Shown one piece after another: positions 1,905 to 61,657 of a DNA stretch of 64,000 nt (position 1 is the stretch's first letter; each line of letters opens with the position of its first letter). A program made the translations under genes and the position numbers. The notes under the pieces were generated by a model. The model saw nothing but the letters and a program-made list of their open reading frames with translations. It ran no database searches and had not been told where the DNA came from. The stretch comes from Saprospira grandis (lineage in GTDB: Bacteria > Bacteroidota > Bacteroidia > Chitinophagales > Saprospiraceae), in contig NZ_CP110854.1 of assembly GCF_027594745.1 (NCBI RefSeq), positions 1,244,241-1,308,240 on the forward strand, read 5' to 3'.

Positions 1905-2090
1905 TTTTTGGGGCTGCCCCTCGCTTCGCTCGGGTCGGGCTATGTCGCAGCTCGCTGCTCGCTCGGCCCTGCGCTTTTTTCGCTACGCTCAAAAGCTGGG
2001 TCTGGCCTGCGGCCACTGCTATCTATCCCTCAGCCTGCGGCGGCTCTGCCGCCTGTCCACCGCAATTGGGCCAAAAAAAGCCGAGCCTGC
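1905..2090. repeat. GC-rich intergenic repeat family copy (type 1, forward)
   Basis: Begins TTTTGGGGCTGCCCC directly after the stop of the upstream gene. Shares the core GCAGCTCGC..GCTCGGCCCTGCG and GGTCTGGCC..CGGCCAC with other copies. GC-rich island in an AT-richer genome. Confidence 0.8.
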
Positions 2091-2177
2091 TCAAAGCAGA
2101 CTCGACTTCACTTAATAACCCTAAAACCTTAACCTTTGGCTTAAATTGACTTAAGCCTCTGGAAAACCAAAAAACTC

Positions 2178-2624
2178 TTACTGAACCTGAATACTGATTT
2201 TCTCTTTTTTAGGCTCCTGCTTTTTAGGAACCTCTAGTTGGAGAATGCCATTTTCATAGCTAGCAGTAATACTTTCTAAGTCGTATTTATTAGATAAACG
2301 GAGCTTGCGCTCAAAGGTTGTAAAGGCAAACTCTCTTCGTCTAACTTTAACATTTTCAGGCAGTTCCTTAACATTTCTATTGGCTGAGATATGCAGAAGG
2401 TCCTTCTCTAGCTCCAATTTAAAATCTTCTTTTTGGAAGCCTGGAGCCGCTAGTTCTAGCAAAAGGCCAGCTTCTGTCTCAAAAACATTGAGCATAGGTT
2501 GCTGATGGGCTTGGTCTTGACCAAAAAACTGTTGTAGGGGTTCTTGCTTGAGCAGTTGCTCTAGCTCTTTACCAAATTCATTGAAGGGGAAACCAAAGAA
2601 GTGATTTGCTTTTGCGTTTTTCAT
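2178..2624 (-). CDS. Hsp20/alpha-crystallin family small heat-shock protein
   Basis: 148 aa. Alpha-crystallin domain pattern (NVFETEAGLLLELAAPGFQKEDFKLELE...GILQLEVPK). Confidence 0.85.
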   Translation of the reverse strand: MKNAKANHFFGFPFNEFGKELEQLLKQEPLQQFFGQDQAHQQPMLNVFETEAGLLLELAAPGFQKEDFKLELEKDLLHISANRNVKELPENVKVRRREFAFTTFERKLRLSNKYDLESITASYENGILQLEVPKKQEPKKEKISIQVQ

Positions 2625-2834
2625 AGCTCTATTATTTTTCTTACTCTTTTACTATTTAAGCTGGCCTTGGGCCAGTATGTCTATCGAAGCTTCATCCTTG
2701 ATTAGACAAGTTTGGGACCAAGGGCCAAAAGAAGAAAAATAACTGTCAAAATGGCAAAAATACAAAGGGAATACTGACAAAATGTCAAAAACGGTAGTTT
2801 TGAGCTGTCATTTTGGTCCAATTGCGGTTTTACA

Positions 2835-2974
2835 GGGCGCGCAGCGCCCGCAGGCCTAGCGATGTGCAGCAGTGGCCGTCAGGCCAGACCAAGGCGCTCT
2901 AAGCGCCGCAGGGCCGAGCGAATAGCGAGCTGCGGAACGTAGCGCCCGCCGAAGGCGGGAGGCCCCAAAAAAAA
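2835..2974. repeat. GC-rich intergenic repeat family copy (reverse orientation)
   Basis: Reverse complement of the family core (..GGCCAGACC.., ..CAGGGCCGAGCGAATAGCGAGCTGCG..), ending GAGGCCCCAAAAAAAA. Confidence 0.8.
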
Positions 2975-3004
2975 TCCCCTCTCTAAACGAAAGGGGATCT
3001 AGTT

Positions 3005-59986: not shown

Positions 59987-60114
59987 TTTTTCTTCTTTTT
60001 GCGAAAGCTCTTGTTTATTCAAATCGACTTATATTAAATTGTGGCCCCATTAAAAGACCAAAGAGAGTGAAAGGCCCTAAAGTTAGGGCTAAAAATCAAA
60101 AAAGCAGCTATGTT

Positions 60115-60885
60115 ATGCCCAAGCAATCAGATAACAGTCTTTTTGTCGGAAAGGTTGCCATCCGTCATAAACGCCTAGATTCGACCAACCGCTATGCGCT
60201 TGACTTCTTGTCAAAAAGTTTACCAACGGAAGGAACTGCCATTATTGCAGATGAACAATGGGCGGGCCGCGGCCAAAAAGGCAACAACTGGTTATCGGAA
60301 GCAGGACAGAATATAGCTCTAAGCCTTATTTTACGGCCAAAGTTCCTGCTTGTTAAAGAACAATTCCTTTGGAACATGGCTATTTCCTTGGCGGTGCATG
60401 AGGTCCTGACAAATTGCCAGCTTCAACTGCCGCATTATATTAAGTGGCCCAATGATATTTATGTGGGCAACTTTAAGGTGGGCGGCATCCTCATAGAGAA
60501 CCAACTGCGGGGCAGCTACCTTGATTGGTCTGTGGTGGGCATAGGCTTAAATGTCTTTCAAAAAGATTTCTCTCCTAAATTGCCCAATCCCAGCTCATTA
60601 GCCCTACTGACAGAAAAAAAATTGAACATTGATTCAATTCTTTCGCAACTATACGCAGCCATAGAACGTCTATACCTCAAACTGCGGCAAGGCCACGGCC
60701 AAGAACTTTGGTCCTTATATGAAAGCAAACTTTGGCGCTATAAGGAATGGTCCAAATTTAAGTGGCAGGAAAAGGAGCATGAAGGCCGAATTTGGGGCGT
60801 AGCCCCCAATGGCCAACTCAAAATTATAGACCGAAAAGGACAGCTGCATTTATTCAACTTTAAGGAAGTTCAATATATACTATAA
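60115..60885 (+). CDS. birA: Biotin--[acetyl-CoA-carboxylase] ligase (group I, no N-terminal HTH)
   Basis: GRGQKGNNWLSEAGQNIALSLILRP matches the biotin-protein-ligase GRGRRG.W.S..G signature. ~255 aa from the ATG at 60115. Confidence 0.8.
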   Translation: MPKQSDNSLFVGKVAIRHKRLDSTNRYALDFLSKSLPTEGTAIIADEQWAGRGQKGNNWLSEAGQNIALSLILRPKFLLVKEQFLWNMAISLAVHEVLTNCQLQLPHYIKWPNDIYVGNFKVGGILIENQLRGSYLDWSVVGIGLNVFQKDFSPKLPNPSSLALLTEKKLNIDSILSQLYAAIERLYLKLRQGHGQELWSLYESKLWRYKEWSKFKWQEKEHEGRIWGVAPNGQLKIIDRKGQLHLFNFKEVQYIL

Positions 60886-60990
60886 TTCCTTTTTTTCGGG
60901 CATACTGTTTGATGTTAAGAATTTTACAATACTGACGATGTTGTAAGTTAGAGGATTCAAGGGACGAGCTTGGATTCTCTTTTTTTGGTC

Positions 60991-61452
60991 CTATTGCAAT
61001 ATAGGAGGCTCATCTTTGCCCCCCTCCTTTACTTCCTCTATATCTGAAAAAGGAATATCTAAGGGTTTATTCTCTTTTTTTGACGGCAATAAGCGGCTGC
61101 TGCCAAAATCCCAAAGGGTTTTTAGGTATAAAAAGCCTAAAAATGGGCTGAAAGCGGCTAGGCCTAGTAAGCTTCCGCCTATTCCTAACCAAATATTTTT
61201 GGCATAGAGGCCTTTGATATAATTATACACTCTAAGCAGTAACTGCCGATTGATCAATAAGACCCCAACAGATAAGGCGGCAACAATCCACCAAACAAAC
61301 TGCTTGAGGAAACCAATCACCACATAAATCAGTACCGAGACAACAATTAGGGCCAATAACAATTGTATAAAACGAGCCAAGGGGCTGCTCTTTTCTTTTT
61401 CTTCTAAGTTCAACATAGATCCGTATCTTTGGTCTGCTCTAAATATAGACAC
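60991..61452 (-). CDS. Hypothetical membrane protein
   Basis: Three hydrophobic helices (LLALIVVSVLIYVVIGFL, WWIVAALSVGVLLI, WLGIGGSLLGLAAFSPFLGFLYL). No family recognised. Confidence 0.4.
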   Translation of the reverse strand: MSIFRADQRYGSMLNLEEKEKSSPLARFIQLLLALIVVSVLIYVVIGFLKQFVWWIVAALSVGVLLINRQLLLRVYNYIKGLYAKNIWLGIGGSLLGLAAFSPFLGFLYLKTLWDFGSSRLLPSKKENKPLDIPFSDIEEVKEGGKDEPPILQ

Positions 61453-61496
61453 TTTTTAAAGGAGCTGCCTTATATTGGCCCCCTTTTTAGCCAGAG

Positions 61497-61657
61497 AAGG
61501 CGGCGAAGCCGCCGCAGAGGAGCGAAGCGACTGGCTGAGGGATGGATAGCAGTGGCCCGCAGGGCCAGACCAAAGCCGCCGAAGGCGGCTGCAGGGCCGA
61601 GCGAACCGCGAGCTGCGACACAGCCCGACCCGCCCAAAGGGCGGGGCAGCCCCAAAA
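61497..61657. repeat. GC-rich intergenic repeat family copy (reverse)
   Basis: GGCGGCGAAGCCGCCGCAGAGGAGCGAAGCG..GCTGAGGGATGGATAGCAGTGGCCCGCAGGGCCAGACC...CAGGGCCGAGCGAACCGCGAGCTGCGACACAGCCCGACCCGCCC..GGGGCAGCCCCAAAA. Confidence 0.8.

Follow-up and report, generated by a model that had tools for sequence, protein, structure and literature searches.

A family of structured intergenic repeats of Saprospirales with covarying hairpins, alternating in orientation in Saprospira grandis

A 64-kb stretch of the Saprospira grandis chromosome (contig NZ_CP110854.1, positions 1,244,241 to 1,308,240; hereafter the window, with coordinates counted from its first letter) contains 21 copies of a single family of structured intergenic repeats, 10 on the + strand and 11 on the - strand. 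The copies, about 115-180 bp long, share a multi-helix fold supported by covariation, occupy the same sites in related genomes, exchange entire hairpins at those sites and alternate in orientation along the chromosome. We tentatively consider them non-coding interspersed DNA repeats of selfish, non-autonomous nature, similar in kind to the repetitive extragenic palindromes and their mosaic or paired arrangements (REP/REPIN-BIME) or to hairpin-type MITEs (miniature transposable elements with inverted repeats), a reading that is plausible and that has serious competitors.

The copies were located with an nhmmer profile seeded with eight copies and iterated once (E-values from 1.7e-12 to 6.5e-34), and a covariance model recovered the identical set of 21. 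A first-pass annotation, made from the sequence alone, had listed 19 sites; every one of them holds a copy, and the two sites described as composite (51385-51914 and 56810-57420) consist of two copies each, placed tail-to-tail. The three motifs said to be shared by the copies are family-wide: a head, TTTTGGGGCYNCC, which occurs 23 times in the window with at most one mismatch versus 1.6 times expected and a shuffle maximum of 6, a core, GCAGCTCGCAGGTCTGCTCGGCCCTGCG, and a segment, GGGTCTGGCCnnCGGCCAC. The consensus start of the unit is TTTTGGGGC. Both of the 5' variants previously described exist, but two was too low a count, as there are at least four head variants (GGGGCTG, GGGGCCT, GGGGCCC and GGGGCTT). 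The copies are GC-rich, as had been noted, with 64-73% G+C compared with 40-53% per kb in the window DNA. All of them are intergenic, in agreement with the earlier claim, apart from the copy at 17191..17373, which overlaps a coding sequence (CDS) by 7 nt. With one copy per 3 kb, the family makes up ~5% of the window, which extrapolates to roughly 1,400-1,700 copies and about 5% of the genome for the whole chromosome. No Rfam 15 family matched the element at the gathering score or at E-values up to 5, and only two tRNA-Gln genes passed; three chance-level hits touch just the tails or flanks of the copies at 16477, 31415 and 44670-44950, and none overlaps the core fold. We found no description of the element in the literature on Saprospira repeats.

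The anatomy of the unit was drawn from a side-by-side comparison of copies from several genera. The 5' half begins with the T-run of the head, followed by the 5' strand of P1 (GGCNN), a variable hairpin P2 and the 5' strands of P3a and P3b. The middle part contains the conserved loop CTCGC-N5-6-GCTC, the 5' strand of P4 (GGCCC), hairpin P5 and the 3' strand of P4 (GGGTC), whereas the 3' half consists of hairpin P6, the 3' strands of P3b and P3a, the 3' strand of P1 (NNGCC) and a tail of 0-3 GC mini-hairpins. P1 is the closing stem, P3 is an irregular stem and P4 encloses hairpin P5. Phaeodactylibacter has a minimal version in which a triloop closes P4, and P5 and P6 are missing. The two strands of P1 are complementary, each head variant being matched by its 3' pentamer, in 137 of 143 copies (GGCCT/AGGCC in 58, GGCTG/CAGCC in 51, GGCCC/GGGCC in 20 and GGCTT/AAGCC in 6), and other genera use GCGCC/GGCGC, GCATC/GATGC, GGACC/GGTCC, GCGAT/ATCGC and GCGTG/CACGC. 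In P3b, which shows eight pair types, pairing is complete in 127 of 140 copies, versus 58 +/- 5 copies with shuffled partners. A covariance model built from four gap-free copies and their structure was used to align 46 copies, of which 21 belong to the window and 25 to other genera. In this alignment 92.4% of the paired cells are complementary, versus 69.7% in shuffles and 33-65% with slid partners; double-sided changes were found at 29 of the 33 pairs and all seven helices are supported. The abundance of short inverted repeats reported earlier was also borne out, since the 143 copies contain 528 perfect hairpins with stems of at least 5 bp, fourfold the number in dinucleotide shuffles (132 +/- 12). 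The whole-element minimum free energy z-scores are modest, with a mean of -1.1. The family is a real structured intergenic repeat of the REP/BIME sort, as the first-pass annotation had proposed, and its fold is supported by covariation. The copies in the window, with their subfamily (type), are the following:

Copy 1, 1904..2065, + strand: type A, head GGGGCTG directly after the stop codon at 1903; core fold 1908-2035.
Copy 2, 2827..2972, - strand: type B, GGGGCCT; head after the Tsp protease gene's terminator hairpin and T-run.
Copy 3, 5337..5490, + strand: type A; antisense, between two - strand genes; core 5341-5470.
Insert in copy 3, 5471-5665: 195 nt, displacing the tail hairpin of this copy.
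Copy 4, 8967..9146, - strand: type A2; head 6 nt past the porin stop codon at 9153.
Bidirectional terminator, 8927-8948: beyond the tail of copy 4.
Copy 5, 11630..11792, + strand: type B; between the HU gene start and tRNA-Gln.
Copy 6, 13749..13925, - strand: type A2; head 4 nt past the stop of a TetR gene at 13930.
Copy 7, 16477..16630, + strand: type A; upstream of, and antisense to, the SulP gene start.
Copy 8, 17191..17373, - strand: type C, GGGGCCC; head TTTTTAGGGG holds the stop codon of a protoglobin-STAS gene.
Copy 9, 22376..22525, + strand: divergent intergenic region; head 17 nt from a start codon.
Copy 10, 23249..23425, - strand: type A2; head 2 nt past the stop at 23428; convergent intergenic region.
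Copy 11, 31415..31558, + strand: type B; flanked by two facing terminators.
Copy 12, 32571..32740, - strand: type C; downstream of a 1256-aa gene.
Copy 13, 37114..37264, - strand: type B; head directly after the PAAR gene stop at 37265, within a contractile-injection gene cluster.
Copy 14, 39681..39826, + strand: type B; antisense, contractile-injection gene cluster; head 35 nt from a start codon.
Copy 15, 44670..44950, - strand: type B; broken up by three ~40-45-nt modules nested in it.
Copy 16, 45826..45990, + strand: type A; antisense; head 51 nt from a start codon.
Copy 17, 51385..51555, + strand: type A; left arm of a tail-to-tail doublet.
Copy 18, 51769..51914, - strand: type B; right arm of the doublet with copy 17; head after the terminator of an SprB-like gene.
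Copy 19, 56810..56956, + strand: type B; left arm of the second doublet.
Copy 20, 57169..57420, - strand: type A2; ~90-nt insert in the P2 region; head after the FtsH terminator.
Copy 21, 61493..61659, - strand: type A; divergent region; head 35 nt away from a gene that starts at 61694.

The doublet at 56810-57420 is an inverted duplicate of that at 51385-51914 (95% identical over ~530 nt, including a 215-nt spacer), and the two flank a 5-kb block, 51981-56432, with the SprB-like gene and two + strand genes. The 530-nt doublet was rejected as a 'full-length' form of the family, the spacer being present only in these two local inverted copies among the fetched DNA. Two smaller repeats were found nested in copies. 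The first is a ~45-nt module (ACTCCCCTCGGTCGTCGAAC ... GGTTG) located at 44760-44900 in the window, at L122 ~9640-9740, at L133 ~5900 and in eight DSM 2844 loci. It is present three times in copy 15, the orthologues of which are uninterrupted in six other genomes, and an additional module of ~45 nt occurs in the orthologue of copy 5 in S. grandis str. Lewin. The second is a low-copy repeat of 195 nt at 5471-5665 (+), exactly between P1' and the tail hairpin of copy 3, and also at L122 15731-15925 and 19375-19542. At the site of copy 1 (1904) it is present in the str. Lewin orthologue and absent in the window, a presence/absence polymorphism.

The two strands of the element are not equivalent. 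Its covariation is almost purely Watson-Crick: apart from a single conserved G·T in P4, few G·U cells occur. Among the top-strand hairpins, the closing pair is C-G in 395 of 528 cases, and the triloops TTC (119), TGC (104), TTT (62) and TAC (16) compare with 6 GAA, no GCA, 17 AAA and no GTA. Read on the bottom strand, the TTC, TGC and TTT loops become c(GNA)g triloops; d(cGNAg) loops are a very stable DNA mini-hairpin motif (PMC3201870, PMC13037366). The sequence GCGAAGC or its complement occurs 28 times in the 64 kb, versus about 8 expected. Non-standard cells at the modelled pairs comprise 90 pyrimidine·pyrimidine and 4 purine·purine combinations on the top strand, and the former would therefore be G·A-type mismatches on the bottom strand. 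With DNA parameters the bottom strand is the more stable one in 125 of 140 copies (p = 1.5e-22) and reproduces the covariation-supported fold in the three copies tested; RNA parameters slightly favour the bottom strand too (89 copies versus 52).

The first-pass annotation had noticed five stop codons (1903, 9153, 13930, 23428 and 37265) with an element starting next to them. This was correct, and copy 15 abuts the stop at 44952 as well. Yet the uniform polarity relative to transcripts that had been deduced from these cases did not hold when the gene context of 108 S. grandis copies was determined with crude open reading frame (ORF) calls: in co-directional regions 26 copies are sense and 31 antisense, 31 copies lie in convergent regions and 20 (19%) in divergent ones. 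Of the 57 heads facing a stop, about 20 have it within 7 nt, and other heads sit 11-40 nt from start codons. In three cases (window 17367-17373, L031 ~5005 and L038 ~5645) the head variant TTTTTAGGGG supplies the in-frame TAG that ends the upstream gene. A terminator scan located intrinsic terminators beside the copies, on the head or the tail side (3000-2972, 8927-8948, 13707-13736 and 5692-5661), and gave only trivial internal matches inside the elements. At least five window copies lie just past a canonical terminator and hence outside the mRNA. Taken together, the type of pairing, the loop bias, the type of mismatch, the strand stability, the absence of transcript polarity and the flanking terminators point to the DNA level.

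The window is ~97% identical to the genome of S. grandis str. Lewin (CP002831). When one genome per species was scanned for the core pattern GCTCGC-N5-6-GCTCGGCCCTKC, matches came up in many S. grandis DSM 2844 loci, in Phaeodactylibacter luteus, in metagenome-assembled genomes (MAGs) of Lewinellaceae and Saprospiraceae, and in scattered high-GC genomes, the last of which share the pattern by chance and lack the element. Searches with nhmmer or the covariance model detected the whole element in Saprospirales loci only (Saprospiraceae, Haliscomenobacteraceae and Lewinellaceae). The family is specific to this order and spans three families. Carriage by phages was considered and rejected, as the element is in none of 24 IMG/VR viral contigs with the core pattern.

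We compared seven syntenic genomes or contigs (Lewin, DSM 2844, CP116808 and metagenome contigs), which over 20 kb share 98%, 93% and 87% identity with the window. A copy is present at every orthologous site in all seven. No empty site was seen among these S. grandis-like sequences, in which only nested inserts are polymorphic. The identity of the elements and of third codon positions, respectively, is 94.9% and 94.6% for Lewin, 92.1% and 87.4% for DSM 2844, and 80.2% and 68.2% for CP116808; relative to third codon positions, the elements diverge at about the same rate for Lewin, the closest of the three, and more slowly for the other two, which are more distant, and their stems stay perfect. 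In the ortholog alignments, entire hairpins are replaced, loops flip from AAA to TTT in stems that are unchanged, and P3b is replaced jointly with P5 and P6. Across 15 orthologous sites, variation affects 92 of the 495 pair positions, with both sides changed and pairing kept in 74, the pair broken on one side in 13, a mixed outcome in 4 and a G·U in 1. The replacing hairpins recur in other copies. Block exchange between copies, or else palindrome-templated mutation, leaves such a pattern of change; stepwise compensatory substitution does not.

Neighbouring copies alternate in orientation in 90 of 103 pairs (window, 17 of 20; DSM 2844 loci, 66 of 76; Lewin locus, 7 of 7), the exceptions in the window being 32740/37264, 45826/51385 and 57420/61659. 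Alternation is still ~83% for neighbours more than 1 kb apart. Tail-to-tail neighbours come as close as 19 nt, and 15 of 57 such pairs are less than 250 nt apart, whereas head-to-head neighbours are at least 1067 nt apart; two copies that share one intergenic region are tail-to-tail in 15 of 16 cases. Independent insertion, or loss from gene-end sites, would give ~50-63% alternation at this copy density by our own calculation. Since 87% was observed, some coupling between neighbours is needed. Avoidance of deletion between direct repeats was judged an insufficient cause because the nearest direct copy becomes no more than twice as distant, and because any single insertion makes one direct pair. 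An exception to the alternation was found in P. luteus (L061, 2019-4076), where four copies follow one another in direct orientation at ~600-730 nt spacing in largely non-coding DNA.

If the family is indeed a selfish, non-autonomous repeat, its relevant form would be a folded single strand of DNA rather than a signal in a transcript, namely the bottom strand with its c(GNA)g mini-hairpins and G·A mismatches. Copies would have been seeded long ago in intergenic DNA, with their heads next to gene borders and T-runs, and would have been fixed at the same sites since then. Whole hairpin modules may have been exchanged among them by short-patch gene conversion or template switching, which would be why the copies are perfectly paired and yet mosaic. 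A trans-acting enzyme could recognise the conserved loop, and effects on mRNAs, if any, would be side effects of an element that is probably no terminator. Since no empty site was found, past mobility is something that we infer. Several observations weigh against this interpretation. All the insertions predate the split of lineages that are 87% identical, which fits a retained function as well as it fits an extinct transposon. Neither an empty site nor a target-site duplication, a defined 3' end or a cognate enzyme came to light. The conserved top-strand G·T of P4, present in 31 of 44 sequences, is an A·C mismatch on the bottom strand. The 10 + and 11 - copies in 64 kb argue against the lagging-strand bias typical of the transposition of single-stranded DNA by insertion sequences (IS) of the IS200/IS605 type. 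Finally, neither the alternation in 90 of 103 pairs nor a gene context specific to subfamilies is predicted for a purely selfish element that inserts at random; with the crude gene calls the subfamilies differ at p = 7e-4 (chi-square), type A heads facing gene starts 26:11, type A2 heads facing stops 9:0, mainly in convergent regions, and type B heads facing stops 28:16.

A search for a partner enzyme was made by tblastn with two Y1 transposase queries against 1.39 Mb of DNA, roughly half being Saprospira sequence with syntenic overlaps. The single match lies in P. luteus (L010), between two copies with their heads facing in. We treated this IS200-like gene as a coincidence rather than as a REPtron-like partner because its orthologues (in a Lewinellaceae MAG, P. 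xiamenensis and two metagenome contigs) have no copy of the element within 3 kb and are flanked by different short palindromes, CGCACGTTCGTAAGAGCGTGCG and CCGTTCCTACGGAAC. These palindromes surround a single-copy Y1 transposase, annotated as RayT by JGI, at L010 6860-7690, L061 2380-2800, L169 2800-3660 and L163 3470-3900. Palindromes and transposase together may represent a separate system of REPs and REP-associated tyrosine transposases (RAYTs) of Phaeodactylibacter and Lewinellaceae, within the Bacteroidota.

Alternatively, the copies could be cis-acting RNAs of the host, those in 3' or 5' untranslated regions (UTRs) shielding mRNAs from exonucleases as REPs do, or inverted neighbours of a single transcript pairing along the conserved core into long-range stems, with the gene blocks looped out for processing of the RNase III type. 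We consider this unlikely, although the fold is strongly conserved across three families, the copies are retained at the same sites over ~13% sequence divergence, many heads are 0-7 nt from stop codons and the subfamilies favour gene starts or gene ends. Several copies also lie within the operon-like contractile-injection gene cluster, and the alternation puts mutually complementary copies around every gene block. However, the near-absence of G·U pairs is unlike typical RNA families, the flanking gene reads the strand with purine-rich loops in only about one case in two, and neighbours are no more alike in type than random pairs (AB 21, AA 12 and BB 11, versus ~23, 12 and 11 expected). The lack of transcript polarity, with 19% of the copies in divergent regions, the position of at least five window copies beyond terminators and the lack of an Rfam match also speak against an RNA.

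The alternation itself, which exceeds the ~56-63% calculated for independent random insertion or loss at this density, would fit an architectural or recombination site in the host DNA that works in oriented pairs. Its conserved loop or core would be the target of a protein, and inverted neighbours would delimit loop anchors, domain boundaries, or invertible or exchangeable blocks. The tail-to-tail rule for pairs in one region, the minimum head-to-head distance, the DNA-like, Watson-Crick-only covariation and the 5-kb block bracketed by the 530-nt inverted duplicate of doublets are all in line with such sites. On the other hand, neither a binding protein nor a recombinase was identified, the seven syntenic genomes revealed no inversion polymorphism, and P. 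luteus L061 has its four copies in direct orientation. Nor do the contents of the blocks have an obvious logic, as ordinary genes occur in both kinds of block and an operon-like cluster is split. Overall, we hold paired DNA sites to be rather unlikely. A related proposal, which we find quite improbable, is that the copies are boundary sites selected in inverted pairs, either as protein-mediated loop or domain anchors in the manner of convergent CTCF sites, or by forming a long-range stem of single-stranded DNA or RNA that loops out the block. It would account for the 87% alternation, the tail-to-tail rule, the retention of sites across lineages and the subfamilies that face starts or stops and, if true, would mean that a bacterial chromosome is divided genome-wide into orientation-coded units of ~3 kb.

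The size, copy number and intergenic location of the element and its small nested inserts would also fit a classical MITE, that is, a deletion derivative of an IS with a DDE transposase, moved through its terminal inverted repeats. A short inverted repeat, P1, does lie at the ends of the core, and an outer repeat GGNCCAAA (TTTTGGGSC...GSCCCAAAA-like) was seen in 27 of 143 copies. With just 19% of the copies carrying it, the outer repeat was rejected as a terminal inverted repeat, leaving P1 as the sole end-proximal one; P1 measures merely 5-7 bp, when at least 10-15 bp would be expected, and it co-varies like a stem. The 3' boundary is variable, and no direct repeat indicative of target-site duplication was visible at 21 junctions, where the 3' end is ill-defined and no empty site serves for comparison. 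The element is not a fragment of a known IS, a possibility left open by the first-pass annotation. In a limited sampling of autonomous IS, an IS5-like element in L131 and an IS3-like element in L134, both syntenic loci, have unrelated, AT-rich ends, and an IS5-like element that adjoins a copy in DSM 2844 was rejected as a partner since its ends are unrelated. None of the 30 flanking or enclosed ORFs tested encodes a transposase: 20 neighbouring ORFs of low-copy genera are all housekeeping genes, and 10 small ORFs enclosed by inverted pairs correspond to HSP20, DUF3276, PorP/SprF or unknown proteins. A classical MITE is, on this evidence, highly improbable. Finally, a Rho-independent terminator module, in accordance with the role in termination first proposed, is scarcely credible, even though about a third of the copies with a head pointing to a gene end have GC-rich stems near a stop codon, given that the T-run precedes the stems and an A-run or nothing follows them on both strands, that strong hairpins with T-runs lie directly beside the elements on either side and not within them, and that half of the copies are antisense to or upstream of genes.

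The copies adjoin housekeeping genes (HU, FtsH, tRNA), and the flanking proteins in the window are typical of Bacteroidota, among them SprB, type IX secretion system (T9SS) sorting domain proteins and Porin_10. The contractile injection gene cluster at 31600-46200 comprises a sheath gene, three gp19-like tube genes, VgrG-like, PAAR, gp25 and Pvc16_N genes and that of the 1256-aa protein; it is split by five repeat copies and may be related to the rhapidosomes of Saprospira. Three tandem DUF6976 paralogues of ~326 aa each were found at 18246-21332 as direct repeats with a 1088-nt spacing and 70-88% identity. Two tandem tRNA-Gln(TTG) genes, 97% identical, lie on the - strand at 11841-11913 and 11961-12033, between the copies at 11630 and 13925.

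About 5% of the genome of a free-living bacterium apparently consists of one structured repeat that was not previously described, as it has no Rfam family and nothing was found in the searchable literature. The family offers a clean natural case of covariation without G·U intermediates, with entire hairpins swapped at fixed loci, and cautions that strong 'compensatory' signals can come from module exchange at the DNA level instead of selection on RNA. Orientation alternation is the feature most worth following up; at the kilobase scale, if genome-wide, it is not predicted by current models of REP or MITE spread. It could reveal a new mechanism of mobilisation or a new kind of chromosome organisation. 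In practical terms, these repeats create spurious ORFs and break short-read assemblies of Saprospirales, and Logan contigs end in them. In S. grandis-like genomes, the assemblies are interrupted by the repeat on either side of the HU-porin unit (L001 and L125-L130; Logan and ENA contigs of 1.7-2.6 kb).

Among known systems, the element resembles the RAYT-mobilised REPs, bacterial interspersed mosaic elements (BIMEs) and REP doublets forming hairpins (REPINs) of Proteobacteria in being a high-copy, extragenic palindromic repeat, often located in 3' UTRs, with inverted doublets, mosaic modular clusters, no visible target duplication and a form that is thought to act as folded single-stranded DNA. 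Unit orientation alternates within each BIME, whereas the alternation reported here spans kilobases and involves separate intergenic regions. REPs are single hairpins of 20-40 nt tagged by GTAG or CGTC (PMC3733652), while the element has a multi-helix fold of 115-180 nt with a conserved internal loop and a consensus without either tag. It also differs from REPIN-RAYT systems in that no element-linked RAYT was found in the 1.39 Mb searched with two Y1 queries, and in its host phylum, Bacteroidota.

BOX elements of Streptococcus pneumoniae (boxA-boxB(n)-boxC) are intergenic, contain a variable number of hairpin modules with stable predicted folds, and are mobilised by an enzyme that is not known. 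The element is likewise modular, intergenic, hairpin-forming and stably folding. However, the two are unrelated in sequence, BOX has far fewer copies, and its modules are fixed, whereas in the element the stems vary while loops and junctions remain constant. To our knowledge, orientation alternation has not been reported for BOX. Correia elements (CREE) and enterobacterial repetitive intergenic consensus sequences or intergenic repeat units (ERIC/IRU) are intergenic repeats, ~100-150 bp in length, which form long stems and are perhaps co-transcribed. Unlike the element, they have long terminal inverted repeats (and, in Correia, TA target duplications), are AT-neutral, and show neither a conserved internal loop nor module swapping.

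The palindrome-associated transposable elements (PATEs) derived from IS200/IS605 share with the element the sub-terminal hairpins in place of inverted-repeat ends, the lack of visible target duplication and, presumably, the single-stranded active form, and they insert 3' of a short conserved sequence, the counterpart of which could be the T-run. Their replication strand bias is absent in the element, with its alternating neighbours and similar numbers on both strands (10 + and 11 - in 64 kb), and no Y1 transposase is tied to it. Integron attC sites come one per cassette ORF, in uniform orientation and with an integrase nearby, whereas the element occurs in both orientations, beside housekeeping genes and without an integrase. 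Most hairpins of the element end in C-GNA-G on the bottom strand, as do mini-hairpins of the d(GCGAAGC) type (PMC13037366), the known natural examples of which are single sites at phage and plasmid origins and at promoters rather than a genome-wide family. We would place the element among the bacterial interspersed repeats of the REP/BIME-MITE kind, as a new and lineage-specific variant that most likely both acts and evolves at the DNA level, in the form of a folded single strand with exchange of modules.

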